Part shown: positions 7,966-44,400 of the stretch, in pieces | Numbering within the stretch: position 1 is the stretch's first letter | How the letters are laid out: each line of letters starts with the position of its first letter | Assembly (NCBI RefSeq): GCF_000002075.1 | Contig: NW_004797707.1 | Span: 424,928 to 484,934 of the forward strand | DNA: 60,007 bases | From: Aplysia californica | Lineage: Eukaryota | Direction: 5' to 3' | Made by a program: the position numbers and the translations under genes | Notes under the pieces: model-generated | The model's input: only the letters and a program-made list of their open reading frames with translations | Told to the model about the DNA's origin: nothing | The model's database searches: none

Positions 7966-8494
7966 GGGGGCTCTCGTGGCCTAGAGGTTAAGGTGTTCGC
8001 CTCTCATTCAAAGGTCCCGGGTTCGAATCCGGGTAGCGACCAAAAAATTATCTTATCTAAATTTGTCTCCTTTCACCTCCTTTCCTACTCTCTAGCAATG
8101 TTCTGTCGTCTGCTTTCGTCTCCTCTTTCTGCCCCCCCACCCCTTCACTTCCTTTGCCCCCTCCTCTGGGCTCCTGATTCTTTCTGCAGCCTTTCTACTG
8201 CTACTCATTGGCTTCTTCTTACTGCTGTCTTTCAGCCACACCCCTGATCTTCTGGTAGGAAAGATCTACACCTAGCCTTCTCGGACAAGGGCGAAAAATC
8301 TCGGAGGTCCCGTATGCAAGTTGTGCACGTTAAAGATCCCTTGGTGGTCTAAAATCGATAAGAGTAGGCTTCGGCTGCCACCCGGGCAAAATTCAAAATT
8401 TCCTACCAACTGAAAAAGTTTAGTGTGTCCCGCGCGCTCATATGACCTTATGCAGTTGCGAGCGCCGTAAAACACTTACAAAAACAAAGAAAAA
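7966..8494 (+). mobile_element. tRNA-derived SINE family 1, full length with TSD
   Basis: Same structure; TSD CAAATCCAAACTG at 7954-7966 and 8495-8507. Confidence 0.9.
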
Positions 8495-8607
8495 CAAATC
8501 CAAACTGTATGTGTGTATCATCTACAGGCACATACAAAAAACTGGGCAGCATGGATGTGGGTGATGGCATAACAAGAATACTTTGAATTATTGCCTTCGT
8601 TATTTTG

Positions 8608-8794
8608 CAATAGACGTGACTCTCCAATAGCCGTGACTCTCCAATAGACGTGTCTCTCCAATAGACGTGACTCTCCAATAGACGTGTCTCTCCAATAGAC
8701 GTGACTCTCCAATAGACGTGACTCTCCAATAGACGTGACTCTCCAATAGACGTGACTCTCCAATAGACGTGTCTCTCCAATAGACGTGACTCTC
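8608..8794. repeat. 17-bp minisatellite CAATAGACGTGACTCTC, ~11 copies
   Basis: Direct reading. Confidence 0.95.
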
Positions 8795-8995
8795 AAACCC
8801 AAACTCTCTGTGTGTATCTTCCGCAGGTAGATAACCAAATCCGGGCATCATGGGTGTGGGTGATGGCATAGCACGAATACTTTAAATTATTGCCTTCGTT
8901 ACATCACAATAGACGTGACTCTCCAATAGACGTGAGACTCAAACCCAAACTCTCTGTGTGTATCTTCTGCAGGTAGATAACCAAATCCGGGCATC

Positions 8996-9308
8996 ATGGG
9001 TGTGGGTGATGACGTAGCACCCAGGTTCACCCAGAAGCCGGCTCTGAGACAGGAGGACAATGGTCAGCGATTGGTCTTCCACTGTGTCCTGGAGGCGTCG
9101 CCCAAGCCGGACATCGCTTGGTTCATGGGCACCACCCCGATACAGACGTCTGACAGAACGCGCATGCGCGTGGAGCCGGCGGGAGGGTCAGCCTTCAACG
9201 TGATCCTGGAGATTCTGGGAGTGGCCCAGAGCGACGCGGGAACCTACAAGGTGGTGGCCAAGAACAGACTCGGCGAGGTGTCTGCTTCCATCAACTTGAA
9301 CTTTAGTG
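8996..9308 (+). CDS. unc-22: Twitchin first coding exon, Ig1 (acceptor AG at 8971-8972, so 8973-8995 is 5' UTR)
   Basis: gcatcATGG Kozak; APRFTQKP...DIAWF...DAGTYKVVAKNRLGEVSASINLNFS; donor G|gtgagt, phase 1. Confidence 0.93.
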
Positions 9309-9497
9309 GTGAGTGGCAGTTGTGTGTTTGTTGTTGAACACCTTTCTCTGTGTGTTGTTCTTGGTGGAAAGTGACAGTTGTGTGTTTGTTGTTGAACACC
9401 TTTCTCTGTGTGTTGTTCTTGGTGGAAAGTGACAGTTGTGTGTAGTAGGTTTGCGTTTGTTATTCATCTTTCTCTGTCTGTTGCTCTCAGTGGAAGG

Positions 9498-9566
<69 letters not shown>

Positions 9567-12500
9567 TTATTCATCTTTCTCTGTCTGTTGTTCTTGATGG
9601 CAAGTTGTGCGTTTGTTGTTAATCTTTCTCTGTCTATGTGTTGTCCGTCTACTGCAGGATGTAGCCATCCAACAACGACCTCGACTACTCAGATTTACCA
9701 GATGTTCTCCGTCTACATGTTGTACCCATCCACTCTCTGTCGTCACCTTGCTACTTAATGAAAAACAATAATTGCATTTATATAGAACTTAACCGTGCTC
9801 TGCAGCATGATCTATGCACTTTACAATCGTTAATAATACCACAGAATACTCCAGAACACTCAGAAATTCTCTCTCGGCTTCCTGGAAGGCATACAGTGCA
9901 AACAGCTCTCAAAAACTATCAAACTGACACGTTCTTTTCTTGTTGCTGGAGTATTAATTGTACAATCGACGTGGTCTGTCCTATTTTACAACAGAGGTTG
10001 CGCTATCTTTGACTGAAGCAAAGTTTGTACGTTGTAATAATTTAATTTTAGAAGATAATTGATGAATATTATGTTTTGTGGTTCGTGATTCATGATTGTT
10101 GTATGTCAAAATACAAGGTACTTAGTAGAAGCAAAAATATTAATTTTATTGATTCCTGCAGAATATTATCTTACTGCGAAAAGTTTAATTCTTCTAAATT
10201 TTGATTCGCTACTAATTTTGACAAAATGGACAAGATTAGGACAAATTGACGTGTCTCATCAACCTCTGCAACATTTTTGAATTTAATTTATTTATCTATT
10301 TATTTTTTAAAGTTTTGACACACTACAATGTTGAATAGTGGTGACGAATAAATTATTATCATGGCCCTCATCTTAACGAAATACTTGTTGCGTCCCTTTT
10401 CTCGTCACCTCGTCACTTGTTTGGCCTGGTCCATTTTTGTTCGAGTGCTGTCCCCTTGTGGTGACTGTGAGTAAATTTAGAGATGTACTGTATACCGGAT
10501 TTTTTTCGCGCGTTACTTAAATTTACAATTTTCGCGATTTCGAAAGGAACTTGTGAGTTCAAGTGGTTCGAGAAAATAATGTCAATGGGGGTGATGCTAC
10601 ATTGTACATAATATTGGAGAATCCAACCGTCTAAGAAGTTTTTCTTTGTTCTTATAGTCATTCGNNNNNNNNNNNNNNNNNNNNNNNNNNNNNNNNNNNN
10701 NNNNNNNNNNNNNNNNNNNNNNNNNNNNNNNNNNNNNNNNNNNNNNNNNNNNNNNNNNNNNNNNNNNNNNNNNNNNNNNNNNNNNNNNNNNNNNNNTTTT
10801 GTATTTGTGTGTATGTATTTTGTCTGCCTGTGTGTGCGTGTCTGTGTAGTTGTCTTGTTTATGTGCACGCGTAATATGTATGTCTGTGTGTTATCTTATA
10901 TAGGGCCTATGTGTCTGACACATCTGTATACATGCCACTGGGCGACTCAAATTAATTGCACCGAAATCGAAACGTTCGGGGAAAACAATATTCTGGTCAA
11001 AACGCGGAAAATAAGAGCGCGCGAACAACCCCAGGTATACAGTACTCACTCGCGTTGGGTCTGTGTAATCTTAAAGTCTCCGAGGGGCAAGCGTGAAAAG
11101 TCAGCCCCCTCTCTCTGTGGTGCACGTACGTTTCTCTGTGGGGATATGGTGTCCTGAAAACTAGATCTGTGAACAATATACATTCTACATGATGGTACGG
11201 TGTTTTCCTTTTTTGTGTCCTGGAAAGTGCAGGTTGTCTTCAGTAACTTATTCATTTTGTTTTATTACCGTGATCTTATATTTTGTGGGGGGGGGGTTGA
11301 CTAAGTTATTGACATGCCCACATAATCATTCCACTTTGAGATAAAGCATGTTGATGACGTGAACTTTTTTTTCTTTTCTTTTTTTCAGCTGGAGGACAGA
11401 AACAGTGAGTATTAACCTCTACCTTCTAGATCTAGTAGCGGGACTGTGTGAAGACTTAAAACGTCTCTGCTGGTTCTCTTATTGAGTTCTAACCTGCTAC
11501 ATTTTTGGTCTATCATTTCTGATTGCTCAGTGCATCATCATGTGTATTTTGTGGACACCAGAGTAACACCAGATGGGTGACGGCGATCGGGAGACATTAG
11601 CCTAGGATAATAATAGGACTTTTGAGAGCATTTGAGCGGAGAAATGAGAGGAAAACCATACATGTCAATTCAGATCTGACACTTTTCATGGCGACGAGTG
11701 AAAGAGAAGGAAAGATCGAGAGTGTGACGTCCTAAATTTTGTGTACCGTTCACGGGTACCGTTACAAGATTGGTTTGTCGGCCTACGTGTATGGGTGCTT
11801 GTGTACGTGGGTAGAGGTAGGGGTGAGGGATACGGGAATGGCACAAGTGGATGGACATGACCTGCAAGCGGGGTCAGGCGGATTGAGTTGTAGGGGATTG
11901 ACACCATTATTTTATGTTTTTTAAAGTTTTAGTAGAGGTTTTACGGCGCTCGCAACAGAGTAAGGTCTTATGAGCGCCAGAAGATTACATGTGTTACAAG
12001 AGAGTAACAAACATAAAAAAGAAGAAGGGGAGATAAGGACGATAGATGTTTGATAGGAAAGAAGGAGCAAACCACACCAGAGCACCCGCCAACCACCCAC
12101 TTATGTTTCCTGTTATAAGTTTTAGTTGCAAAGTAATCTTTAGTAGTCTTTTGGTATTTTGCTAACAACTGTATCTTCAGTGCTGTGTTCACTTTCACAG
12201 CTAAGCTTGACTAATTTCTGCCTGACCTTCACACTTCTTTCAGTGCTACCATTGTTTGTTCAGTCGATCTGGGCCATCACTTGATGTCATCTGAGAATAT
12301 AGGAGTGGTTTACTCTGAATTGTTGTATCAGGTTGTCTTAGAAATTGCCATCAAAATTGTTTTAAAAGTTGGATTTTGATTTCCATTGGGTACTGTCGAT
12401 ATACAAAATGAATTAACATATACTGGTTGCCATTCTTCTCTATATTATTGTATGTTGACAAGCAAAAAGCTGAGTGGTAAGGAGAGAGAGAGAGANNNNN

Positions 12501-26400: not shown

Positions 26401-29400
26401 GTATCCTTCTCATCCCAGGTCAGCCCAGACAGGCAGAGTCAGAGCCCACCTCCTAAATGAACTTTATTGTGTTGATTGGACCGTAAAAATGCCTTCATTT
26501 AAATGTTCAAATTTTTTACCAAGTGTGCAAGTCGCGCGTGTTAAAGATTCCTTGCTGGTCTAAAATCGATAAGAGTAGGCTTTAGCCGCCACCCAGGCAA
26601 AATTCAAAATTTCCTACCAGCTGAAAAAGTTTAATGTGTCCCATGCGCCCATATGACCTTATACAGTTTTGAGTGCCGTAAAACATTTACCAAAACAAAA
26701 AAAAACCAAAATTTTTTTCCAGCTCTGAAGCCCAAGCCCAAGGGAGAAGCGCCCAAGTTCACGCAGAAGCTGATGCCCAAAGTGGTCAACGACGGAGACC
26801 AGGTGGAGTTTGTGGCCAAGCTGACCGGCACGGAGCCCGTGGAGACCCAGTGGACGAAGGACAAGAAGCCCATCAAGCCTGGCGATGTCTACGCTGTCTC
26901 TTACGACAAGGGCGTGGCCAAACTCAACATCTCCGAGGTGTTTCCGGAAGATTCCGGCGAGTATGGCGTGATGATCAAGAACCAGTGGGGCTCCGCAACT
27001 TCCATGGCCAGCCTTCAGGTCAAAGGTAAAACTTTAAAAAGTATTTTAGTAAGAGTTTACTTTTGATTAGACTATTGTCATGATGATTTCAAAGCATAAA
27101 TACATTTGTGTCACGACGCGGTGAAATCAGTCGCTCGTAAATTTTTGGGCATATGGAGTTATTTGAATTATCTTATAGCTTGGTCCTTTGTCTTGCTTTC
27201 AATGAAAAAATTAACCATCTATCTTCAATAGAAATGGAGATATTCTTGATTAAAGTAGCTGAAAGTTACCTGAAAGTTTTTCAGTAAAATCGTTTCAGGA
27301 ATATGATTTTACATAGACATAAAAGATGTTGAGCCAAAAAAAATAATTTTTTAAAAAATGGTCAAATGGAAGAAAAACGCCGTTTTCTCTGATTTCATTA
27401 TTATGACGAGCGCCTGATTTCTCTACGATGGGTCACATTTGCCTTTCATTGTTTTGTTCTTTTCTAACTTTGGATCTGAACTTCATGAAGAGAAGCACTT
27501 GCAACACAAGTAAGCTCTAGAGGTGGCATAGATTCGAGGGTTTATCTATCTCAAAATTGAAGTCTAGATATTTGCGGTTGAAGAGGGGGGGTCACCAGGT
27601 TTCAGTGGTAAAATTAATGAGAAAATGGCCGCCAAAGTATGGTGACTTCATAGCTTGAGAGATCTTGAAAGTTAAAATTTTACATATTTTGAGTCTTTAA
27701 TCAAAGTTTTTCAGTAAAATTCACATGGAACGTGTTGTTAAAAGGACAAAAAGATGTTGAGCCAAAAAACAAACATTCGACAAAAATGACGGAATTGACA
27801 GAGCAATGCCCGTTTCTAGGATTTCATTATCTTGACGAGCGCCCGATTTCACCACGATGCCTCACGCTAATCTTTCATGACATTGTTCTTTTTTTTTCTC
27901 TGAATCAGAGCTTCCTGAAGAGAAACAGCAACAGCAAATTGAAGAAAGCAAGATGGAAATTAGAACAATGTCCAAAAAAGTANNNNNNNNNNNNNNNNNN
28001 NNNNNNNNNNNNNNNNNNNNNNNNNNNNNNNNNNNNNNNNNNNNNNNNNNNNNNNNNNNNNNNNNNNNNNNNNNNNNNNNNNNNNNNNNNNNNNNNNNNN
28101 NNNNNNNNNNNNNNTATTTGGACGAGTGGAGGTGCCGCTAAGCATATTGACAATGGAGCCGAAAAAGAGCCTCGCTCTCGCTCGAAGATTTCTTCGTGAA
28201 GTCCGTCAGGCCCATTAAGGAAACGAAAAAAAAAAATAATCATCATCATCATTGTATAAACCAGATATTAAAACGATTAAGACCAGGCAGCATTTCCAAA
28301 AATGTTATCACAAGTTCAACGTTTCGCCCTCAACGGGCTTCATCAGGAACATTCAAAATATTTTTTTTTATAAATTTAAAAAAAAAATCATTTTTTGGAA
28401 AGCAAAGTAGGAGGGAGAGTCTTGTTTGAATTTCACACAAAATAACATAACAATATAAAATGTTAAAAATTTGTTTAATAGACACAGCTCAACGTTTCGC
28501 CTCTTGAGCTTCCTTAGGAGCAACTGAGAGAAAAACTAAATGAGCGCTGTATACTAGCATCATCACGATCATGATGATGATCATCATCATCCATCATCAT
28601 CATCATTGTTTGGAAAGCAGAGTAGGAGGGAGAATCTTGTATGAATTTCAGACAAAATAACATAACAATATAAAATGTCATCATCATCATGATCGTGATC
28701 ATCATCATCATCATCCATCATCATCATCATCATCTTTCTGGACGTACATTGCCATATTTCTTCAGAAGAGACAATTACAGCAGCATCAGCAGCAACCTCC
28801 TAGTGATTGTCCACACAAAAAATGTCGAACAATAACAATCTTACCCAATATTAAGGACGTGTCACATTATGCTTAACTAACGTCTAGCACCCATGAAAGT
28901 AAGACATGGAGCCAAAAATACAAAAGTAAGTTGTCGAGAGTCAATGGTATGTAGATGTAGCCAGTGGAGTCAGCAGACAGTTCGTTATGTATAAGTCATG
29001 TATTTGTTTGATATTATTTCACAAATTAAATACGAAATAGCTAAAAAAAAAAAAAAAAAAAGATATTGTGGCTTTATAAATTTGTGTAGAAAATCTGGTT
29101 TTAAAAAATGTCTAAAAAAAGATATTGTGACTTTGTTTATTTGTGTAGAGAACCTGATTAAAAATGATTTTTTAAAAAGATATTGTGACTTTTTATTTGA
29201 GTAAAGAACCTGGTTTTTAAAAAAAAGATATTAAATAAAGATATTGTAACTGTTTATATGTGTAAAAAACCAGGTTAAATTTTTTTTTAAAAAGGTATTG
29301 TAACTGTTTATATGTGTAAAGAACCTAGATAAAAAAAGATATTTAATAAAAGATATTTTGACTATTTATTTGTGTAGAGAACCTGGTTAAAAAAAATATT

Positions 29401-32400
29401 TTAAAAAGATTTGTGACTGTTTATTTGTGTAGAGACCTGATAAATAGTATCTTTGTCTATATGCATCCTGGGAAACGGAAAATGTTACTGGGTATTCTGG
29501 GGTCTGTTGAGATAATAATCTAGATTGTAAAACTCGTAGTGTTTGCTGTTGAATGGGAGTATGTGCTAGAGAAATGCTATTTATCATTTTTCATCATTAA
29601 TAGTTTTCAATTCATAATGGCATAACAAGTTCTGTCCACTTTTTGCAAACAGACACCTCTCATTCAGCTCTGTGTTGGTCAATGTGTCTTTTTTGTAGGA
29701 CACACCCCAACATCATCTATCTTCATTAATTTTATCATCTTTTGTTGCTGAGTGAGTTTCTTATGAACTCAACAAGAGAAATGACCCTGGTTGTTTTGTG
29801 TGAAGCACAAGTTAAAAAAAAAAATATTTAAAAGCATGACAGAAACCAGGAGTTAATATTTTTCAAAATGGTTTCCCCTAGATATGTCTTTCATGATTTT
29901 TTATACAGTTTTCTCTTTCATCGTAAAAAAAATCAGGTCACTTTGTCACTCTTCAGGTGTGTAAGGCTGAAATATTGAAAAATATCATTCTTATTTTGTA
30001 GTACTTTTACTTGCTTTTGGAAATCTAAATTGGTTTATATTTGAGATGTTTCACACTAACATGTGTTTACTTTGTTCTTTGTATTGCAGAAAGAAGATGC
30101 ACGTAAGTACTCCAACTTTGAAATAAATGTGTGATGATTTTGTGTGAAAATATTATGTCTGAATTGTCTTAGCACCCCTCTGTCTCGATAAAACTGTTTT
30201 GAGAATGACTGAGGAGAGGGAAGGTGCAGGTGTTGGAGAAAGTTGCTTGTAGCTAGCATATTTCAAAATTCCTCTTTTGAAAAGTGTGTGTAAGCTGATC
30301 ATAGCTGTGAGGCAAACAAACACCTTGGGTCATTGCCAGTGGTGACACATTTTGGTCGTTTCAGCCAAGTCCATTCAGATGTTGCACAAATTGTGACCAG
30401 TTGTTTTATTCAAATAAGAGTTGCCTCTTCTTTAGATATTTACAGAATTCAGTAAAAATTTTGGTCATGCGAAAACATGAATTATATTCATGACAATTCA
30501 TGTTGTTAATTTTTTTTCTTTCTTCCTCTGGATACAAATTTTTAGGAGAATATTTTCTGATAGTCGAATATAATTCAGGTCACTTTGCTAGTTCAAGCTG
30601 GCAGTGCAGCATAACTTTTTCTTTTTGATGGACTTGGCTGAAGATTGCTTCTGGGTGTCAAGCATGAGTTGTATGTGAAAGATTATTATATTAGAGAATC
30701 CCATAGTCTTTTTCGCACAATTGACGTGGTGCCTGTATGTGAGATGTCCCCAGCTGCAGGGGAAGAGATGATGTTTGCCTGTAGAACCGTACGGGGAAGA
30801 AATGATGTTTGCCTGTAGAACAGTACGTGGAAGAAATGATGTTTGCCTGTAGAACAGTACGAGAAGTGTTCCGGTGTCTCGTGTGTTTGTTTTAGAGTCT
30901 TGCTGGGTGGCAGACATCTGTGTTTGCATTGCAGTAGGATAGAGATATGTACACTTTCTCTGCTGTGAGTGAATGAAGCTATTCCATTGCAACTAGATTT
31001 GATCAGAACCAATTGAAATGTCCTTAGATTTTTGGGAATGGAGTATGTGAAAGCAATTTGTATTTGTATGCATTGCAATTTGAAATTCCACACACAAATG
31101 AGCACTTAGTTTATTTTGAATATGCTGTGGTTTGCGGAAAGCATAATGAAATGTCGGAGTTTCGTTTTTGGAATGACGTGGAAATGTGCCCCCCTTTTCT
31201 TCAGAAACAGTATTTGAACCCCACAGTTAATGAAGACAGCTGTCAGAGATTGTCTTGTCTTTGTGCTGACTCAGCTGTTCAAGCTTAGATAATCTCTGTC
31301 TCAGATGTCATGCCATGTAGTCGTCTTTTGTATGCACAGACATATGATATTGCACTGTCTGTCTTTCNNNNNNNNNNNNNNNNNNNNNNNNNNNNNNNNN
31401 NNNNNNNNNNNNNNNNNNNNNNNNNNNNNNNNNNNNNNNNNNNNNNNNNNNNNNNNNNNNNNNNNNNNNNNNNNNNNNNNNNNNNNNNNNNNNNNNATGC
31501 TTGCAAAAATTTCTTCTATTTGCTTTTCTGATGAACTTGCTGGTGGCTTCAAGTCTTTCTCCCTAGCTAGAGTTGACTGAGTTTTTTGGAGACCAGATTT
31601 TAATGCTGCTGTCACAAACTGTGTTGAGTGCTTTTCAGGACTAGCAGCGACTTCTATAGAAGTGATGAACTTTGCCCTGTGCTGGGATTTTCGTGATTTA
31701 TTGTCTGCGTTTTTTCTCCCAGTAGTACAGTTTTGTTCTCGGTGATCCCGATATGAGTATGAGATTTTGGCGATCCCGATATGAGTATGAGATTTTGGTG
31801 ATCCTGATATGAGTATGAGATTTTGGTGATCCTGATATGAGTATGAGATTTTGGCGATCCTGATATGAGTATGAGATTTTGGTGATCCTGATATGAGTAT
31901 GAGATTTTGGCGATCCTGATATGAGTATGAGATTTTGGCGATCCTGATATGAGTATGAGATTTTGTGATCCTGATATGAGTATGAGACATTTTCCACTAG
32001 TGCCCTTTAGCTGTGCAGCAAAGTCTTGCTCTTTGCCTTAGTGATTGTGCAGGATTTTCATCTCTTTTTTGCTGTGACCACCAGTGTCTTTTTCGTAGAG
32101 TTAGAATTTTGCTTGATTTTTCTCCTCCCCTCCCCCCATCTGTCCTTGACCCTGGCTTGCCACTTGTAGCTGAAGAGGTGAAGCAAGTGGAGGTGAAGCC
32201 GAAGGAAGAACCACCTAAAATCGAGGAGCCACCTCCGAAAAAGGTTGAAGAACCCAAGAAAAAACCAGAAGAACCCAAAAAGGTGGAAGAACCCAAGAAG
32301 GTTGAAGAACCCAAGAAGGTTGAAGAACCCAAGAAGGTTGAAGAACCCAAGAAGGTTGAAGAACCCAAGAAAAAACCAGAAGAACCCAAAAAGGTGGAAG

Positions 32401-35400
32401 AACCGAAGAAGAAACCAGAAGAGCCGAAAAAAGTTGAAGAGCCAAAGAAGGTGGAAGAACCTCCAGTGCAGAAGAAAGACGATGCGAAGAAAAACGCCAC
32501 TCCTTCGATTGTGGTCGACGGAGAGGATGACGCAGGTAGAGTGGGAAAAAACAACAAGGGAGGTAAAAATGTGAAAAAAGGGAAACCTGCTAAGGATGAC
32601 GCAGACTCTGACGAAGAGAATTCATCAAACAAGAGAGCGCCGAAAGGCAAAGGTGGGAAGGCGTATACCAAAAAACCCACGACTATTTTGGAAGAGCTGG
32701 AAGAAGGTATGGGGCTTGCCGTTGACAATTGCATCGTGTTTTTGAATTGTGAACTAACATGGCTTACGGTAAGGGATTTTTGCATCTGCTTGTCTTTATT
32801 TCGCTTTTTTTCTTGCTTGACAATCTTTGATTATGACCAAGTCGTTTCATGCAAATGACAATCTCCTTTTGTCTCCGTGTTTGTCATTATGCTAAGAGAA
32901 ATAGGAAAAATATACCAGATGTTCCGATTGGAATGCTATAAGGTATTGCTCAGTGGACTACTTTAAAATAGATGACAGAAGACAATTTTCTCCTCATGGC
33001 GTCAACTATGTGTGGTTCTTATGGGGAAATATAGACTGAAACAACTTGAGTACTGTAGCCAGTAAAAATGGAACCCTGTCTGGGGAAACATTCAGGAGTG
33101 TTTGCTTTTCTGGTCTGCTTTTGCACTTGCCCATCTTCTGTTTTTGATATTCTGTTTCGCGAAAAAGTCTTGCACAACTGCGTCTCTGTGTAAGCACTTT
33201 GGAAATGGTCTTTTCAGCGCTGCTATCATTAACTGTCAGTTGTTAGCTCAAAAGCTCTTTGTTTCAGCTTTTCTTTGTCCCCTGTGAGAAGTTGGTAATT
33301 TCTCACGCAGGAATATTTATGCTATATGCTGCTTCTGTAGCTGAACTTAACCAGCAGCTTCAGCGGTTCTGCTTTTGCCACTGTAGGAGAAAGTTGTTGT
33401 TTGAAATAGGACAAAATAGGGATCATGTTATTTGGGTGTAAAAACATCTTACTGAAATCGTGGATGTGAGCAGTTGGAAAATGTTGAGCTTATATGCTTA
33501 CATCTGCTGCCTTACAAAAGAAGGTTAACCAAAGTTAGACAAGTTGCTTTCTGCAGTCTGATCAAATTCAACTTACAGCTTTACATCTGTTTACTGTAAG
33601 GAGTCAACCCATGTTTTGCACTTCCCACTTCTATGCTTGAATTTGGCTTTGCTTTTCACACAATTTTCAAACTCCTCTTTTCTCTTTGTCAAAAATGAAA
33701 CTGCAAAGAATCTGATACCAGATTAAAGATCATGTGAATTAGATAGATTTTTGTATTACTTACTGTAATAATAACAATAATAATAATAATGATGATAATA
33801 ATAATAATAGTTCACCCATCAATGTCTGACAATATGACTAATGCATTTGCAGAGGAGAATACTCTCATTAACTTATTGTAATACATTAATACCAACATTT
33901 TAGACAAACTAATAACAGGCTTAATAAAGACGTGTATATTGTGTTCAGGCAAATAACCTTACTACTAGTTGTAGCTTTGTCTGTTGATAATTATTATAAT
34001 CACATCATTGTCTTCACATCAGCTCTATAAGAATAAGTCAGCTGTTTTTTCACATTAACACACGGTAACTTGTGTGTACGGTAGATGACATGCTCCGGTA
34101 TTTGTTGTGCTGCAAATCAAAGCGGAGCTGAATAGCTTTAAGTTTTTCTATATATATTTTCATAGAATAGCACTAATCACTAACCGTGATAACACTCACT
34201 AAAATTAGATTACTATTTTGACTTGATAAAGACTTAAGTGAAAGTTTGAGAATAATTTTATTGCCTTTGTCATAAATATGCAGATTAGATTTTATTAGAG
34301 TTAGTAAGTCTTGATTCTTTTTAAAATTCAAAATTTGTACTTTAATAGATTTATCACTAGGTATAAAATATTAGGCAAATTTGTTTTTATTAATTTAGAC
34401 TCATACTACATACAAATGTCAAGAGTTTTATGGGTTTGGTTGGCTGGATCAATAACAACAACATGGGTTTGGTTGGAGAACTATAGTTCTGAACTTTTCT
34501 CTCTGCAAGAATATGCTGGATCTGTGCATGGTTCAAGGCCATCAACTTTGCTCTTTGACTTTTAACTTTCGTATTCCCTAATAATTAGGCCTTTTTGGAT
34601 TCATTGCCGCCAAATGAAAGGCTTTTGGAAAAAAAAAAACAACTCCAGACACCCAATCTGGAAGTTGGAGCATGGGATGAAATAGTGTCCTGGGACTGTT
34701 TATGCTTGGCTGAGTCACTGTTCCTTTCTGCCAAGAAGGAAGATGACTTTCTCCAACAGCCGTTTCTTTTTCCCTGTCACATCACACCTTCGGTAGAAAA
34801 TATAAGAGCAAAGTTATGGTTCTTTCGTGCTTGTTCAGCTCAGAAATTAGAAAGGGTGATCTTTCTGTCTGAGATTTAGGACTGTAAGTCACAGTTCATC
34901 AAGCCTGGCATGGTGATGGTCTAACTAACATAAAGTCTTAATATCCGAAGGCTTCAAATTTATTGAGGCCTGAGCAGGCTGTGTGTCAAAAAATTAAGGC
35001 ACCCTTCCTTACTTATCCAGATGAAAGAATGAGAAAACTTGGTGAAAGGCCAGTTTTTTCATCCTCATGCCATACTTATCAGATTAAGATAAAAGATCCA
35101 GGTAGCCATTTCTGCCCTTTAGTGTATGTTTTAAGGGGGTGTCATACTCTCATGTTGTAGGCCTGATTGATGCATTTACGATATTTACTCTCGTTTCTCT
35201 TGCTTAGTGGAAAAGCAGTCTTGATAGACATTAGGGAATGATCATGTGTAATCATCTAGACAGCTTTTAAGCATAATGCTGAAGTGCAGTATTTCTTTGT
35301 CCTAGTCTTCCTTGAGAGTGCTGTTCTATGTACTGTGTCATGTATGTAGAAGATGCTGTGTGTATTTCTTGCCAGCATACAGTCATGTATTTGCCGTTTG

Positions 35401-38400
35401 TTGATTTGACCCCACCCTGCCCCTGGTTGCTTGCCCCTCCCTTCTGAGTCTGGAGTTTTGTGTTGACTTTTGCTAAGATAACCTCAAGGATCAGGATGAT
35501 GAAGATGCGGGTTATGAGGCGGACGAAGACCGCACCGGACCCTACGACTTGGATGACGCGGATGAAGGTGAGCAGAGACGCCGAGGCTGGAAAATAGCCC
35601 TGAGCTGGGTGCGAGCGGTTATTTGTGACAAGGACAGACTCCTAAACGTTTGATTGAGACTTTTTTTGGGGAGAGCCACGTTGTCAACTCTGGAATGTGC
35701 ATTCCAGTTGGCAGAAAGTCCATGTATTTTTTTTACTCCAGATTTTTACAAAGTGGACCATGTATAATATACAGTTTGGCTATGACGACTAAACAGTAGG
35801 CTACTTGTTAAGTACATTAATTTTAAGTCTATTGTGACTTTTGTGTAATAAATATACATATAGCACAGCTTGTGAATAATTTGTCTCTTTCAGCATTAAC
35901 ACGGGATATGTATTGTTTAATTATCCTTCTCCTAAATGCATGGTCCATCTCTGTTTTAGAATTTCAAGTACCGTATTATCAAAAGTAGCTTTCCACTTAA
36001 AGCTATCGGTCAGTAAAAGTGACAATCTCAGTTCTGTGCTTTCAAGCACATTTTACATTAAAATCGTTTTGGGGAAAACAATCTTGGAAGAGATTATATT
36101 CCTTGAAAAGGGTCTGTTCTCAATGCATTTTGTTCTGTATCCGATCTTGCTGTATGTGTCTCATCATGCAAGCATGTCGCCCTCTAGGAGTTTGGAAGTT
36201 CTCTCTGTTCTGTTTGATGTTTGCCCAAGCATGTTGGTGCTTTATCTGCACACCCTCCCTTGGGCATGCCTCCTCGTTCTCCTCCTCCTCCCCCTCCTCC
36301 TTCTCCTCCTCCTCCCCCCTCCTCCTTCTCCTCCTCCTCTGTCTTTGTCTTTCTCTGGCGGCATGCCGTACTCAGCAGGTACTGCACTGATTCGTTTGTG
36401 TCTGCCAGGAGGATGTCGTGAGTGTCTGGAGACTTTGCCTCATTGGGCATCCTGCCTTTGGCCTGTCTTTTTGGGCATGAATCTACATAAAGGTTGCGCT
36501 CCTCTCGTGGGAGTTCCTGGGTATACCTACTTTGTGTCGAGTAGGGTGTGTACTGTAAACTAGACAAGACATGGCATAGGCCTGCCATACTGGATTGGGC
36601 ATAAGCAATTGTGAGGCAGCGTGGTGGAATCAGGCTCTCGTCAATTTTTGTGCTGTAGAGTTATTGGTATCATCTTAAAACTTGTTTACTTATCTTTAGT
36701 TGGATGAAAAAAATGTCCATTTATCTTGAATACAAGTCGAGATATTTGCGAAAGAAGGAGGTGGGGGTCACCTGTTTTCAGAGGTAAAATTAGTGAGAAA
36801 ATGTCCGCCAAAGATAAGTTATTTCCTTAGTTTAAGAGTCCGTGGTAACTGAAAATTTACATTTTTTGTGCCTTTAATTAACGTTTTGCAGAAAAATCCA
36901 CACAGAAATGAGTTCTTTAAAGGACGTGAAAGGTGTTGGGCCAAAAACATAAATTTGATAAAAATGTACAAACCTGCGGAAAAATGCAAGTTTCTTCACT
37001 TTGATTATTTTGACGAGAGCCTGATTCCACCACGCTGCCTCACAATTCTATTTGGGATCTTATAACTCTTATACAAGTTGAAGATAGGATAAAGTGGGAG
37101 ATGGTTTCTATGAGATGAGTTGAGAGCAAAATGGAGGATTTTGATCGGAATCGAAGTGTTTTCAAATACAAAAATGTACATGAAGTGGCGTAAGTAATTA
37201 ATTAGTTGTTTTTTTATTCTTAATGCTCCTTGTCTGAACTGATTCCATGGGTTTAAAAAAAAAACCCTTTAGAAAAGATATCATTAGGGTTAGAATTCTG
37301 CTCATTTATTTAAGAATGTAGATTCTTTTGTCATTTAGTCACTAGGAGAAGAAACATACTTTTTTGTTCCGTTTTCATGAAGATTAATGTTCAATAGTAT
37401 CACACCCTACTCCTGACACCAGGTGTAGAAAAAGATGTAAAATTATAGTGGAACCTGCTCAAACCAAAATCAGCAGGAGTCGCTTGATTTTCTTTAATTT
37501 AGCCAGTTTTTTTTTGTTTAGACAGGTTCCTCAAATGTAAGGGGAAAAAAAGCCAGGAATTTTATTTTGTTTCTGTTTACCACTGTTTTTTAAAATTAAG
37601 TGTGTTTGGTTTATGCAGACTCCACTGTACATTTACTTGTAAAAAGATTTTTCCTGTATCTATACCAAAAATCAAACTGCTGCAACCTTTATGTTTGCTG
37701 TGATTTTTGACTAGTTTATTTGAACTGTTACTGTAAGCTGCTGTGTCTTCAGAGGGGGGCAAAGTTACTGGAGGTAAGTGTGTTTGTTTAATTACAATAC
37801 AAGACATGGTAGGCCTACTGGTAGCAAGCCTAAAGTGGCTAAGGTTCTATTCGTGAGAAGTGGTCCCGGACGAACTCATAGAAATTTCTACTTTATGTAC
37901 ACAATCGGAAACAAAAACGGAAGTCGCTTTAAAAAATATGGAAGGTGGGAGGGGGTGCAGGGGGGTCTCCCCCTTGCTAAATTCACAAAAAATAACGGTT
38001 TGTGACAGTTTTTAGTACCAAAATTGTTCTCAACACACTAAAAAACGTTAACATAGTGCCAAAAGAACACACTAAAAAACGTTAACATAGTGCCAAAAAA
38101 TAGTCTAAAATGGGTTTGGACCTTTTCTACAAATTTACCGGTGGCCTTTTCATCCTGGCAAATCAGTCAGCTTTTTAACTCGACTTCCGTGTTTGTTTCT
38201 GATTTTGTGAATAAATTTCTATGGAGTTAGGCCGGGACCACTTTTCCGGAAGAGTGCCGTGGCTAATTGCACAGGCTATGTTGTCTGGTAAGTATTTCCC
38301 TCCTTGTTGTCAGAAGGAAGTGAAATCTTCAGCGCTGCTCTGTGAGGGTAAAAAAATGTTTCCAAGTGTTTTTGGGTGTTACCCATCCCAAAAGGGGTTA

Positions 38401-41400
38401 TAATTAGTAATTCCCTTTTTGAACCAGATCGCTGAGTAGCTTTGTAGTTGCTGTTCCCACACTGTTTTGTTTTGTCGTATACATATATTCACCATGTTGT
38501 ACTGAGCAGTCAGCTTTAGTAAACATGTGGTCCGTATTGACGTTTAACTCACTGCAGTTTGCCTAATTGGCCTCTGTATCGTTTATGTATCGTCTTATTT
38601 TCGTACCACCCGTAGCTTGCCTAATTGGCCACTGTATCGTTTATCGTCTTATTTTTGTACCACCTGTAGCTTCACTGACTGTAGCCGTTCACATGTCTTT
38701 GTGCTAAATATGTCGCCCGTATCCATCTGTTGTCTTTGTCTGTCTGTTCGTTGTACACAGTGTAACATTCAGTATAGATGTTATTGTAACATTCAGTGGA
38801 AATGTTATTTTAACATTCAGTGGAAATGTTATTTTAACATTCTGTACAAATGTTATCGTAACATTCAGTCTAAATGTTATTTTAACATTCAGTCTGTACA
38901 AATGTTATTGTAACATTTAGTGTAAATGTTATTGTAACATTCAGTGGAAATGTTATTTTAACATTCTGTACAAATGTTAATGTAACATTTAGTGTAAATG
39001 TTATTGTAACATTCAGTGTAATTGTTATTTTAACATTCTGTACAGATGTTACAGTAACATTCAATGTAAATGTTTTTGTAACATTCTGCGTAATTGTTAA
39101 TTTAACGTTCTGTACAAATGTTATTGTAACAGTCTGTGGGAATATTATTGTAACGTTTTGTTTGAATGTTATTATAACATTCTGTGGAAGCTCTGTTCAT
39201 TGTCGTTTATTTCTCATTGTGGTTAATGTTATTTGGATTAGCAGCAATTGAGAAATCCCTTTTTTTTTTCACAGCTCTTTGTATTATATCTCTCTGCAAC
39301 TGAGTTTGTGAAATGATGAAACACAAATGGAGCTATGATACACACTCCCTATTGCAGATATCTTTGAAGCTTTGTCGTTGGGTTTCTGAATCGGATATTT
39401 TCTGCTTTTGGTTCTGAATCGGAACAAAAATTTACATCTGAGGACAATTTAACCCAGTGTGGATTTATGGGGAGGGTGGTTGCAAATTTCAGTAATCTGC
39501 AAGAGAGGAAAAGAGAATTTCTCTTGTGAATAGCAAAAGAAATGTTTATTTTATTTTAAATTTTAAAAATTTATTTCAACATTTCTTTTGCGTGAGAATT
39601 AGGATATGTGCCCAACACAGTCTAATTCTTAATGGCTTATGATTTATTGGTCCCGTGCTTTTTCTGAAACGTTGGCCAAACTACACGCGGCCTTTTTTTT
39701 AAATGGAGGAGTTAACTGAGGTGAAATGAACTGCAGAGTTATGATTCTTGAAATCTTTTTACTCTCGCTGAACTGATGAGGAGTAAATGGAGATGATTCA
39801 ATAGCGTAATCCTCTTGATGAGTTGGGTACTTCTAGGCTTGTTGAAGTTAGGTTGATTTACTTTTATTTTTCCAGTTTTCATTGTTATGTTTTGATGAAC
39901 TGTTTCAGAAACTGACTGTGTCATTTGTTTTCTCTTTCAGGTAAAGGCAGCATGGACTTTTCCAAGGTAAGGCTTTTGTAGGACCATTTTGTCCTATTTT
40001 GTAGGACCATTTTGTCCTATTTTGTATCCTCTCTGACATTGTCCTATTTTGTATTGTCCTATTTTGTATTCTCTCTCTAAAATTGTCCTATTTTGTATTG
40101 TCCTATTTTGTATTCTCTCTCCAAAATTGTCCTATTTTGAATTGTCCTATTTTGTATTCTCTCTCTAAAATTGTCCTATTTTGTATTGTCCTATTTTGTA
40201 TTCTCTCTCTAACATTGTCCTATTTTGTATTTTCTCTCTAACATTGTCCTATTTTGTATTCTCTCTAACATTGACCTATTTTGTATTCTCTCTAACATTG
40301 ACCTATTTTGTATTCTCTCTAACATTGTCCTATTTTGTATTCTCTCTAACATTGTCCTATTTTGTATTCTCTCTAACATTGACCTATTTTGTATTCTCTC
40401 TAACATTGACCTATTTTGTATTCTCTCTAACATTGACCTATTTTGTATTCTCTCTAACATTGTCCTATTTTGTATTCTCTCTCTAACATTGTCCTATTTT
40501 GTATTTTCTCTCTAACATTGTCCTATTTTGTATTGTCTCTCTGACATTGTCCTATTTAGTATTCTCTCTCTGACATTGTCCTATTTTGTATTCTCTCTAA
40601 CATTTGTATTGTCCTATTTTGTATTCCCTTTGACATTGTCCAATTTTTTATTCTGTTTGACATTGTCCTATTTGTATTGTCCTATTTGGTATTCTCTCTT
40701 ACATTGTCCTATTTTGTAATCTCTTTAACATTGGCCAACTTTGTATTGGCAGGACAAGAAACCAATCATGGCCATCGGCGAGGGTCCAGCCCTGAAGGAC
40801 AAGCCACAGAACCAGGTGGTCATGGAAGGTACGTGTGCTCACATCGCTTTCCTTCTGATCAAATGCAGACTGTAAAAAGAGATTCAAATTTTTCCTTCAT
40901 TTTTGACTTGATATTAATTACTATTTGGTTGATTGCTTAATGCCTCTATATACATCTTTTATGTTATTCAGAACAGTGCTTGTCAATCTTTTTATAGCTA
41001 GCGGCCACTTTTGTCACATTTAAGAGGCTTAAATTCTCATACTACCAACCAACATGTATATGTATTTCCAAGCGGGGCATTACATAAAACCTTCACCATC
41101 TCGATGATCCCCACCACCCACCAAACTCTCCAAAAAGCCCTCTTGTGGGTGCTGTTGCCCAGTTTGGCACACACTGATGTAGAAGACAGGTCGCTTTGAC
41201 AGTGTCAGTCAGAACCTGAGTGGGTTCAGTGGAACTTGGCGTCAAAATGGAAATACAGAATTAATCGATAGAATAAGCTTCCTTGTGTGGGAATCAAACT
41301 CATTTCCTATGTATGAGGAGAGGAGCCTAACCATTACTCCACAGACAGAGGTTTTGTTGTGCAGGGAGATGACTTGGTAAATAAAGAAAATATTTTGGAA

Positions 41401-44400
41401 GTAGCTTTTTTTTTCTTTTTTACCTTTCTATTGGTGGTGCATCACACAATCCTTCTACAATAATTAATGATCTCTGATTGGTGAAGCTTCTACAATAATG
41501 ATCTCTGATTGGTGAAGCTTCAACAATAATGATCTCTGATTGGTGAAGGTTGTAAGTTTTTTAAAGTTTAGATTTTCAGTAAAAGATCTTTTTCTGGATT
41601 TTAAAAAAGTTGTCAAGATAATTCAAGAAATTATATATTTTTTGTGTCAGTTTTCCATGTATAGGGCACAGTGTCATATCATTTTTACTCTATTTGTGAG
41701 CCGTGCTTACAGAATGAGTTGCTTCTTGCAATCCACAAATGAAGATATTGGCCAAAAATCGACACTAGGGTTAAATTTGCAAGTTTTCTTTTGATGCCTT
41801 ATTCTTTAAGTGTAACATACCTTTTATTATTTCATGCTTATAATTTATAAAAACTTCACCTATAATTCTTGAATCCGAGAAGTAACTCATTTTGTAAGCA
41901 CACTTTACATTTTGTGTAGATCTTTGACACAGGCTTTGTTTGCACACTTGTTCTGAATATTAAAAAATGAAGCTTTGATACATAAGGTAAGCTTATGGGT
42001 GATTGGCGGGTGCTCTGGTGTGGTTTGCGCCTTCTTTCCTATCAATCAACTATCGTCCTTATCTCCCCTCTTTCTTTTTTATGTTTGTTACTCTCTTGTA
42101 ACACCTCTAAATCTTTGGCGCTTATATGACTTTATTGTGTTGCAAGTGCCGTAAAACTCTTACAAAAACTAAATAAGATAAGTTTTTGCGTTAATGTATT
42201 TGTTTGTTTCCCCTCCCTTAAGGTGATGACCTCAAAGTGACCGTGTCCGTTGACCCCAAGGGCAAGCCCACGCCTGCCATCAAGTTTTACCGCGGACCTC
42301 GTGAGCTCAAGGACGACTCACGTGTGACCATCAGGACTTCGGGCAACTCGTCCACTCTGTCCATCAAGAGGTCACGTCTGACAGACGAGGCCAAGTACAC
42401 GGTCATCGTGGAGTCTGAGGGGGCCATCACCGACACAGCCACCTTCAGTGTGTTCATCAAAGGTGAGTCGATCGGAGAAAAAGATTGTGGAGCTATTATC
42501 GTCATCCTTTCTCTCCGTCTCTAAGGAGAGTGTCGTTTGGGTTTTTTGTATCCCACTTTGCTACAATTCTCCTTTCCTCACTCCCGTAACTTTTGTCTAA
42601 GTTGTCGGAGCGCCATTTTACAGTCTGTGGTCCGGTCTGCTGCGACAGTTCTCAGTGTGTGCCAGTGTCTGGGTCTTCATGAGTAATTTCCTTGTCCTTC
42701 CTCAGTGGGTTTTTTTTTGTACTTGGGCTTTTTGTGTCGTCTGCCTCCCTGACCTCTCCCCTTCTGTGATCCTCCGCCATTCCTCCTTTGTCCCTCAGCC
42801 ATTCCTCCTCTGTCCCTCAGCCATTCCTCCTCTGTCCCTCAGCCATTGCTCCTCTGTCCCTCCACCATTCCTCCTTTGTCCCTCAGCCATTCCTCCCTTG
42901 TCCCTCTGTCGTTCCTCCTTTGTTCCTCCATCATGCCTCCTCTTTCCTTCCATTGTTCCCTCGCTGTTCCTCCTCCATTCATCAACTGCTCCTTGGAGTT
43001 TGGTTCCTCAAGGCCTGCAAATCTCAAGATTTGGCTGTGTCGTATTCCTCCTATTCTTGTATATTGTGAGATCTCTTTTCCATTCGCATGAAATTATCAA
43101 TGTCAGTGTGAGAATATAAGTTATGTCCTTCAGAACAAACTTCAGATCTTATTAAGTATCTATACATTTTAAGAATTTCACAGCTTTCTAATTTTGTAGT
43201 ATTGATCTGTTTTCATAAGTTTACATTTAGTGTAGCTCGGTATCTGATATGTAATTACCTTCAGTGGAATGTAGATTTCAGGAGGACTGTAATTATTCAT
43301 TAAATCTATTTTTTTTAAATTACATGCCTTGATTTTGTTCAGCATTTCTGCTATATTGATGAGAGGTCAGTCGTGTCCTTGGTTTTGTATGCTGTTTGGG
43401 AGGAGCAGCTATCTCACTGGGACATACTACAATGGTTGCATTGATCGAAAAACTAGAAACATAAAAGAGAACATTACCTTTATTTGCCCATAGATTTTTG
43501 ACACAATTAGTCTTTGTATGCATGCATGCTGCATTTTGATCTTAATAACACTTAATTTGATTCCTTTTTTCAACAATGCCATCTCAAGTTTTGATGCTTG
43601 TCCTCTTTTTTCTAAAACCCTATTTAGTTATTATTTTAGGGGTCCCACTTTCTTGGATCCTGGACATTGCAAGTGAACTGGCTTTTAAAATATTTTGTTT
43701 GATAACTGTATATATGTGCAGTAGCCCTGTGGATGTAACTTCAACAGGTTTTTAATTTCCAGAAAATGTTTTAGATCTTGATGAAACCCATAATTTAGAT
43801 AACCATCTAGAGCTTTTTTCAAAAACATTTTGTTGAAGTGTTTGTGTTTATGATACATAAGGTTTTGTTCTGAGCAAAAGAACTGCATTCAGACTTTTTT
43901 GCGGTGGATTCTAATGTTCAGAAAAGCTGCAGAAATGTGGCCTGTCATCTAAACAGCTGTTTCCCTGCAATTTATTTGATGATTCAAGACGGTACTCAAT
44001 GGCACGAATGCGGCTTAAGACAACTAGGTGTCGGTTACTGTGATGGACACTTTACATTTATTTTCATTTTGCGTTTTTATTTTGTTGTGGAAGTCTTTCG
44101 GGAAAATGATCAAATTAACGAGTTGCACCTCAACAAGATTTTTCTTCAAGTTGGACAAGCGCTCCGCGCGTAGTGCTATCTTTGGTAAAGCTCCTCATCA
44201 ATCTGTCCGTAGAATTTGGTAAGTTCAGTTTGTCTGTCATTTGGATATCTTGCCAACCAGAAGTACTACTCTCACAACTGCTGTTGTAACAGGAGTATTT
44301 CTGTATGGCAATGTCACTATCATATTCAGTCAAAACATGTCTGTGCTTTGTTCACAGTACAATGCTTGATTGAAATATTTGTTAAAAGATTCCGTAAAGA

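Follow-up and report, generated by a model that had tools for sequence, protein, structure and literature searches.

The window analysed here is a stretch of 60,007 nt of Aplysia californica (NW_004797707.1) whose tandem arrays are located in the 5' third of the twitchin gene; all features given below are on the plus strand. The host gene was identified by Ig/Fn3 repeats and a twitchin kinase in one reading frame. It comprises N-terminal Ig repeats, a PEVK-like exon, Fn3/Ig repeats and a kinase exon that shares 62 of 63 residues with the twitchin of PDB 1KOB, and its exon blocks of 28 and 39 exons contain no stop codon. This domain layout matches that of twitchin/projectin/UNC-22, and the arrays leave the predicted protein unchanged. 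The first coding exon (8973..9308, ATG at 8996) encodes the first Ig domain and displays 85% identity to a Batillaria protein and 76% to an oyster protein annotated as 'titin'. A micro-exon of 16 nt is predicted at 18301..18316 and the frame between 16001 and 19656 depends on it: the joined exons from 13702 to 59770 (1072 codons) have no stop with the micro-exon and 30 without it.

The earlier note on this DNA had described four arrays built from exon-intron boundaries. Three of them (A, B and C) hold a real splice site together with exon bases, while the fourth (D) merely abuts the splice sites. Array A (8495..9020) consists of three copies of the intron end, the acceptor, the 5' UTR and the ATG of the first coding exon, with the AG located before 8528, 8827 and 8973 (spacings of 299 and 146, scores of 5.2, 7.3 and 7.2). 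Copies 1 and 2 are 83% identical, and copy 1 includes a nested array of 17 bp x11 at 8608-8794. The acceptor at 8973 is probably the one in use, given that the homologues begin at the same Met. Array B (19533..19678) is composed of 3.0 copies of a 49-bp unit (26 intron and 23 exon bases), and its acceptors at 19558, 19607 and 19656 have the same score (9.9 each); the third one opens the exon 19656..19869. In array C (21452..22035), a unit of 32 bp, made of 21 exon and 11 intron bases, is repeated 18.2 times. The final 21 nt of the exon 21382..21472 form the start of this array, which contains 16 intact GTGAGT donors, the authentic one at 21472. The 7-nt word CATCACT is present at both ends of array C, which suggests that slippage between short direct repeats gave rise to the array. 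The units of A, B and C thus contain exon bases, a splice dinucleotide and intron bases, and their copies carry cryptic AG or GT. They are ordinary mirages, a known repeat type.

Array D (39974..40748) fills a 786-bp intron between a 26-nt micro-exon predicted from frame continuity (39941..39966) and the exon 40753..40828, starting 7 nt past the donor and ending 4 nt short of the acceptor. Its units of 27-44 bp derive from the polypyrimidine/branch region and include 16 CTRAY words, and AG occurs in this intron solely at 39970, 39980, 40003 and 40558 besides the acceptor. The unit has neither a GT/AG splice dinucleotide nor exon bases, and D was consequently rejected as a splice-site array. 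The shorter duplications that had been reported near splice sites were recovered. The first (9312..9443, 58 bp x2.3) starts 3 nt past the donor 9308; its copies show, in register, GAAAGT in place of the donor's GTGAGT, and with the GT missing its status as a mirage is ambiguous. The second (25530..25645) is a degenerate array of 31 bp x3.7 that ends about 51 nt before the acceptor 25697. The third (25790..25877) is a two-copy duplication with a unit of about 38 nt that starts 6 nt past the donor 25784 and continues into N. As the units of array D and of the second and third of these duplications are wholly intronic, they are edge-adjacent minisatellites and not mirages.

The use of the splice sites was examined in assembled RNA contigs of four runs from three studies, which cover the splice sites of arrays B and C. 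For array C, contigs of all four runs (three studies) join 21472 to 22400, i.e. the first donor is used. For array B, contigs of two of the four runs (X13 and X20, two studies) enter at 19656, the exon-proximal acceptor; in the two others, one contig begins within the exon and one is unspliced. No joint at an extra splice site was found among the joints listed for the four runs, which reflect steady-state RNA and in which contig assembly drops rare isoforms. The raw polyA runs X21-X23 contain no reads on twitchin exons and are therefore uninformative on splice-site use. In run X5 the introns are covered, and this run behaves as DNA. Among the runs listed as containing this sequence none is recorded as RNA, and the DNA runs listed are represented by short-read contigs, which break at repeats. 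It had also been claimed that, where the frame can be tested, only the exon-proximal copy is productive. This holds for B, where entry at either upstream acceptor leads to a stop at codon 133, and for C, where splicing from any of the 15 downstream donors shifts the frame or meets a stop. The upstream copies of A would yield upstream ORFs of 11 codons and no frameshift. The second acceptor of array B was also considered as a frame restorer on skipping of the 16-nt micro-exon and was rejected, this path running into a stop.

As one of two possibilities, the earlier note had proposed decoy arrays that tune the ratio of productive to NMD-targeted transcript; such arrays would be selected, and their extra splice sites would be in competition with the authentic ones. 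In favour of this, full site scores are kept (9.9 for all the acceptors of B, the intact donors of C), a premature stop would follow from the use of any extra site of B or C, and steady-state RNA would hide NMD targets. Against this, all listed joints are authentic (with the limit on rare forms given above), the array periods show no preference modulo 3 (11/32 are in frame, P=1.0 versus one third), and an open in-frame alternative exists in 6 of 32 cases. Mismatches in the GT amount to 3/64 versus 55/576 in the flanks (P=0.25, at low power), and the nearest copy scores lower than the authentic site in 15/32 and higher in 5/32. These counts show no sign that the copied signal or the frame is under selection. 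In addition, the enrichment described below extends to arrays beside, and not over, splice sites, unrelated families show a similar rate, and splicing is undisturbed by the published mirages in the parts of PMC3087553 and PMC3902484 that describe them. The decoy proposal is improbable and was not upheld. Rather than a control switch, the arrays are probably a harmless side effect of the duplication of DNA close to exon edges.

The rate of exon-edge duplications was determined in a held-out sample of the same genome, composed of further twitchin introns and of myosin, kinesin, dynein and SNF genes. Outside twitchin, the sample represents four conserved families and not random genes, with predicted exon ends (17/23 exact in a test on the window). 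The kinase and AMP-binding searches gave mostly long single-exon matches and were excluded from every count. Among the held-out twitchin sites, 7/71 donors are spanned by a duplication, versus a first-copy rate of 1.8% in twitchin introns, and 0/71 acceptors versus 2.2%. The other families gave raw counts of 28/584 donors and 7/589 acceptors; after omission of four copies mis-called as exons and one duplicated gene, these become 25/581 (P=1.4e-7) and 5/587, with a rate of 1.2-1.8% at the matched intron positions to which the donors were compared (donor versus acceptor, P=1.5e-4). Donor-spanning duplications were found in each family (myosin 4/106, kinesin 5/128, SNF 4/91, dynein 12/256). Compared with mid-intron, the enrichment is 5.5-fold at donors (95% bootstrap by contig 3.5-8.3), 3.2-fold (2.1-4.5) in the first 80 nt of introns and 2.5-fold (1.3-3.8) in the last 80 nt, but there is no acceptor-spanning enrichment (0.8-fold, 0-1.9); the acceptor rate equals the interior rate and is not significantly lower (P=0.23). 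The first-copy profile falls from 4.8% at the donor to 3.2% at +15..+50 and about 1.1-1.5% past +200, and the last-copy profile is 3.3-3.9% at -80..-15 and 0.8% over the AG. With TRF as a second method, array ends amount to 0.40 and 0.54 per kb at the two intron ends versus 0.13 in the interior (P=0.003 and 2e-5), and the arrays of 346 introns include 10 over donors and 2 over acceptors.

The expectation that arrays at splice sites exceed the background is therefore borne out against intron interiors in held-out genes, while the window itself is not unusual (3/46 sites versus 30/1168 elsewhere in the genome sample, P=0.11). The suggestion that such a density in a single gene had not been described is also weak, since a name for this repeat type already exists (mirages, PMC3087553) and twitchin donors (8/94) show no difference from those of other genes (25/581, P=0.12).

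The enrichment persists with stricter windows, is also present in non-repetitive sequence, and survives both the removal of all masking of unsupported predicted exons and the omission of twitchin. GC matching leaves 19 duplications seen versus 3.6 expected, and GC steps and dispersed-repeat edges within introns show only 0.9-1.6%; as tested, the excess is accounted for neither by GC or GC steps nor by repeat edges or dilution by dispersed repeats. The size of the enrichment varies with the choice of null. With the null 'inside any repeat unit', the 28/584 donors compare with 3.7% (P=0.10, not significant), and the bootstrap analysis versus mid-intron gives 1.9-fold (1.2-2.8). This unbeaten null, the 83 TRF rows of the window and the ordinary rate of the window alone are what could be expected from chance overlap in a minisatellite-rich genome or from assembly artefacts. 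Such an origin is very improbable, since the held-out enrichment was found by two methods, the copies contain substitutions and indels, and a contig from another sample (X17) crosses the junction of copies 1 and 2 of array B with 0 mismatches. Gap edges are also alike at 5' intron ends and mid-intron (0.137 versus 0.146 per kb). Of the mid-intron bases, 13.7% read N.

A process favouring exon borders, one of the two origins first considered, is supported as a pattern of this genome by the donors and the intron ends. Acceptor-spanning copies show no enrichment, and both mutational birth and longer survival would fit the pattern. If survival alone were involved, birth would be even, large deletions and insertions would be kept out of exon-adjacent DNA, where arrays would last longer, and selection on the exon would hold one copy of each donor mirage; the outcome would be silent too, with no mutational bias. 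Dispersed repeats are indeed scarcer within 80 nt of exons (20% versus 30-37%), and the exact-match share is lower in end copies (0.10) than in interior copies (0.19, CI 0.06-0.34). The youngest class, i.e. nearly exact two-copy duplications, shows an end/mid ratio of 1.8 that is not significant (CI 0.75-4.3). These slightly older end copies and the wide interval leave room for longer survival. However, interior copies are not skewed to the young: survival alone predicts an interior spectrum of 0.38/0.28/0.20/0.14, and 0.20/0.15/0.26/0.39 was seen (window-edge effects inflate the mismatch classes), the exact share being 0.19 in place of 0.38. TRF identities are the same in end and interior arrays (84.3 versus 84.9%, P=0.69), indicating the same divergence, and exact 20-mer copies are about 2-fold enriched at intron ends, with 5/344 at donors. 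Survival without any bias in birth is thus rather unlikely, though it is the most serious of the alternatives. The best reading is that the duplications originate close to exon edges or are retained there, birth and persistence both being compatible with the data.

Our preferred explanation, to which we assign a probability of about 0.6, is that the arrays are mirage minisatellites, likely silent, likely born at a higher rate close to exon edges (within about 100 nt) than in the intron interior, and likely filtered by splicing, which would tolerate donor copies better. An exon-edge segment of 20-400 bp is duplicated in tandem and sometimes amplified; for B and C, assembled RNA shows use of the exon-proximal site; and in five gene families the density of such duplications at intron ends and over donors exceeds the mid-intron density 3-5-fold. 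The two ends of introns show a similar excess, and this suggests a cause at the DNA level, for C possibly slippage between short repeats. A symmetric process is expected to cover acceptors as often as donors, and the 5-fold acceptor shortfall may thus reflect the removal of acceptor copies that cause mis-splicing: a surplus donor downstream of the authentic one would be better tolerated than a surplus acceptor upstream of the authentic one. Such a filter would be leaky, since arrays A and B retain full-strength AG copies.

In amphioxus, mirages are described in Adh3, the globins BflGb6 and BflGb9, troponin C and PGBD5; their units range from tens of bp to about 160 bp, and it was proposed that they supply material from which introns are gained (PMC3087553, PMC3902484). 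According to the passages concerned, they share with the present arrays tandem copies over the exon-intron boundary, on the donor or the acceptor side, many with intact AG/GT and normal splicing. The amphioxus globin paper considers their origin unclear, and the passages on amphioxus mirages in the two papers give no rate. By comparison, the count in the mollusc is based on about 650 splice sites of each kind (4-6% donor-spanning, about 1% acceptor-spanning), and it adds a symmetric excess of arrays stopping short of splice sites. The layout of array C is shared with the 37-bp VNTR in intron 7 of human F7, whose first unit spans the exon-intron junction and whose identical downstream pseudo-donors are silent. 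In the portion of PMC1557585 available, the most upstream of the identical donors wins, and mutation showed the pseudo-sites to be functional but outcompeted. The first donor is used in both cases; array C has 32 bp x18 whereas F7 has 5-9 units, and the mutational test concerns F7 alone. Intron gain by tandem duplication, as presented in the accessible parts of PMC3265369 and PMC4974935, starts from the same raw event, a local duplication of splice-signal sequence, but the copies described here lie within existing introns and no new intron was seen.

No count of mirages was found in a search of full-text literature, which leaves most subscription papers outside. Of use here are the rate and the shape, namely array ends that are 3-fold in excess at either end of introns and a 5-fold gap of donors over acceptors, and these make the question of mirage origin answerable with annotation and population data. 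Tentatively, and with somewhat less than even confidence, exon edges could be hotspots at which the tandem duplications of this genome are born. Mirages would in that case not be peculiar to lancelets but the tip of a general process affecting about 5% of donors. The imbalance between donors and acceptors would then measure, at the scale of the genome, how the spliceosome selects one of several identical sites and how much raw material is available for intron gain and for shifts of exon boundaries. On the practical side, in-frame copies (6/32) could move exon ends, and the gene model mis-called copies as exons in three genes.

A twitchin gene lies on the + strand with its 5' third inside the window, where 23 exons were located by tblastn and splice signals. 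Its first coding exon shares 85% identity with a protein from Batillaria and 76% with one from oyster. The gene continues for ~105 kb past the window end (genome contig G000 C437), and a kinase exon found there matches twitchin of PDB 1KOB at 62 of 63 residues. Once a 16-nt micro-exon is placed at 18301, the exons between 13702 and 59770 read through 1072 codons with 0 stops. Predicted micro-exons 11389-11404, 18301-18316, 37753-37773 and 39941-39966 are required for the frame, and a possible micro-exon of 9 or 13 nt (30090/30094-30102) and a possible in-frame exon of 96 nt with a weak donor (51593-51688) may be alternative exons. Between 11405 and 13701 the second Ig domain lacks some 50 codons that homologues have, and the exon concerned may lie beneath the N run 12496-13093. 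A PEVK-like exon of 537 nt (32170-32706) contains in-frame coding repeats of 18, 36 and 57 bp. Beyond the window (stretch L011, ~4838, or 84845 from the window start), one exon has an apparent GC donor, which its open frame needs.

All the tandem arrays described in the earlier note were recovered, and their construction from exon-intron boundaries is confirmed for arrays A, B and C but not for D. Array A (8495-9020, + strand) comprises three copies of an intron end, acceptor, 5' UTR and ATG; by eye, the 5' side of copy 1 is cut off near 8490 by a dispersed element. Array B (19533-19678, + strand) consists of 49 bp repeated three times, with three acceptors of equal score, and array C (21452-22035, + strand) of 32 bp repeated 18 times, with GTGAGT intact in 16 copies. 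The motif CATCACT flanks array C at both ends, which suggests a birth by slippage between short repeats. Array D (39974-40748, + strand) occupies an intron and its unit includes neither a splice dinucleotide nor an exon base, and the duplications at 9312, 25530 and 25790 adjoin splice sites and copy no working one; true duplication is thus present at 3 of the 46 splice sites of the window. The proposal that only the exon-proximal copy is productive holds for array B, where either upstream acceptor leads to a stop, and for array C, where 15/15 extra donors give a frameshift or a stop; the upstream copies of array A would instead give uORFs of 11 codons. Long minisatellites also lie far from splice sites (20314-20648, 29055-29439, 31744-31987, 38761-39186 and 42771-42947), so the background of arrays is high. 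Highly repeated dispersed elements (14093-14323, 14786-15247, 16403-16864, 19175-19500 and 19868-20110) are plentiful in polyA reads and DNA contigs.

Three raw polyA runs contained zero twitchin reads. Contigs from four further runs, belonging to three studies, contain the joins 19869-21382, 21472-22400 and 22632-23239, and two of these runs have contigs entering acceptor 19656. The coverage extended to arrays B and C, and no alternative splice joint occurs among the 15 joints listed of 37. One contig (run X17) spans the junction between copies 1 and 2 of array B with 0 mismatches, making a misassembly at this point less likely. The suggestion that the extra sites are selected decoys tuning productive versus NMD splicing is not supported: the authentic sites are used in the contigs (RNA without NMD block), the repeat frame is random and the copied GT is not specially kept. 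The arrays are probably silent.

The arrays are real and of an already known kind. In PMC3087553 and PMC3902484, amphioxus tandem repeats spanning exon-intron boundaries are called "mirages", leave splicing undisturbed and are proposed as an intron-gain route.

A splice site was called duplicated when the 20-mer across it had a further match of >=17/20 at most 600 nt away in the intron direction. Because the real site is always in a terminal copy, the null was the fraction of intron positions inside the first (donor side) or last (acceptor side) copy of a duplication. In a held-out set of 71 further twitchin exons, with the frame open across blocks of 3, 28 and 39 exons, 7/71 donors (null 1.8%) and 0/71 acceptors (null 2.2%) are duplicated. 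The other-gene set (myosin, kinesin, SNF and dynein; 100 segments) contained 605 exons with Pfam match or paralogue support, and phase breaks affect 2 of 377 adjacent pairs, although phase is favoured by the exon model itself. Duplicated sites amount here to 28/584 donors (null 1.24%) and 7/589 acceptors (null 1.30%). Excluding one duplicated gene, together with four rows in which a copy had been taken for an exon (two on the donor and two on the acceptor side), leaves 25/581 (P=1.4e-7) and 5/587. Against a looser null of 3.7% (any unit, any array), 28/584 is not significant (P=0.10). Triplications of 410-480 bp in dynein (G000 C752 179000-180400) and myosin (C600 467000-467900), respectively, copy most of one exon with its flanks, and their copies were mis-called as exons.

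The 15 donor cases realigned with gaps, of 32, are aged tandem or near-tandem duplications. The median period of donor duplications is 90 nt, half are two-copy, and they include a median of 16 exon bases (ungapped extension). The seven further twitchin donor mirages lie at G000 C437 499059, 505206, 533944, 541618, 557999, 569796 and 590412; three (138, 51 and 36 nt) offer an in-frame open alternative donor, and the one at 590412 follows the last coding exon found. Mirages are not special to twitchin: its totals (donors 8/94, acceptors 2/94) do not differ from those of other genes (P=0.12 and P=0.25). The supposed novelty of their density in one gene is therefore weak, the repeat kind having been named already.

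Along introns, first copies cover 4.8% of positions at the donor, 3.2% out to +50 and ~1.1-1.5% past +200, whereas last copies cover 3.3-3.9% at -80 to -15 and 0.8% over the AG. By bootstrap (introns >=700 nt, no masking, 75 contigs resampled), ratios to mid-intron are 5.5 (3.5-8.3) for donors, 0.8 (0-1.9) for acceptors, and 3.2 (2.1-4.5) and 2.5 (1.3-3.8) for the two intron ends. TRF agrees with the copy profile, total repeat coverage at donors is still 1.9-fold that of mid-intron, and the excess survives stricter windows, GC matching, repeat masking, and GC-step and repeat-edge controls. N makes up 13.7% of mid-intron bases, and gap edges per kb are alike in 5' ends and mid-intron; in the worst case (an array in every interior gap, none in end gaps), arithmetic gives TRF ratios of ~1.4 and ~1.9. 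A process favouring exon borders, as previously proposed, is supported as a genomic pattern by the excess at intron ends and donors; acceptors are not enriched, and a mutational cause and survival are both candidates.

Most deserving of follow-up are this exon-edge excess and the gap between donors and acceptors; the literature searched, which covered few subscription papers, yielded no genome-level mirage count or donor/acceptor comparison. The symmetry of both intron ends would suggest a cause at the DNA level. Donor rates are similar across muscle, motor and transporter genes, a weak hint that the transcription of one tissue is not involved. A birth bias is favoured by the equal divergence of end and interior arrays and by the absence of a young skew among interior copies; the slightly older end copies and the wide interval for young copies, 1.8 (0.75-4.3), keep longer survival of arrays near exon edges a candidate. 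A tolerance filter would account for the donor/acceptor gap. According to PMC1557585, human F7, a mirage-type case tested experimentally, uses the most upstream one among identical donors, and first-acceptor scanning is widely accepted; a copied acceptor would therefore be harmful more often. Arrays A and B are examples of acceptor copies that passed such a filter.

Other coding-like stretches were observed in or near twitchin. On the minus strand, within a twitchin intron (L009, ~64-70 kb from the window start), lie an ORF of 1248 nt and shorter pieces of coding-like character. Farther on (L020-L024, 174-181 kb and 202-211 kb), a multi-exon minus-strand gene, a putative RsmH/METTL15-like methyltransferase, is accompanied by an ORF of 1386 nt and a stretch resembling a decayed retrotransposon.
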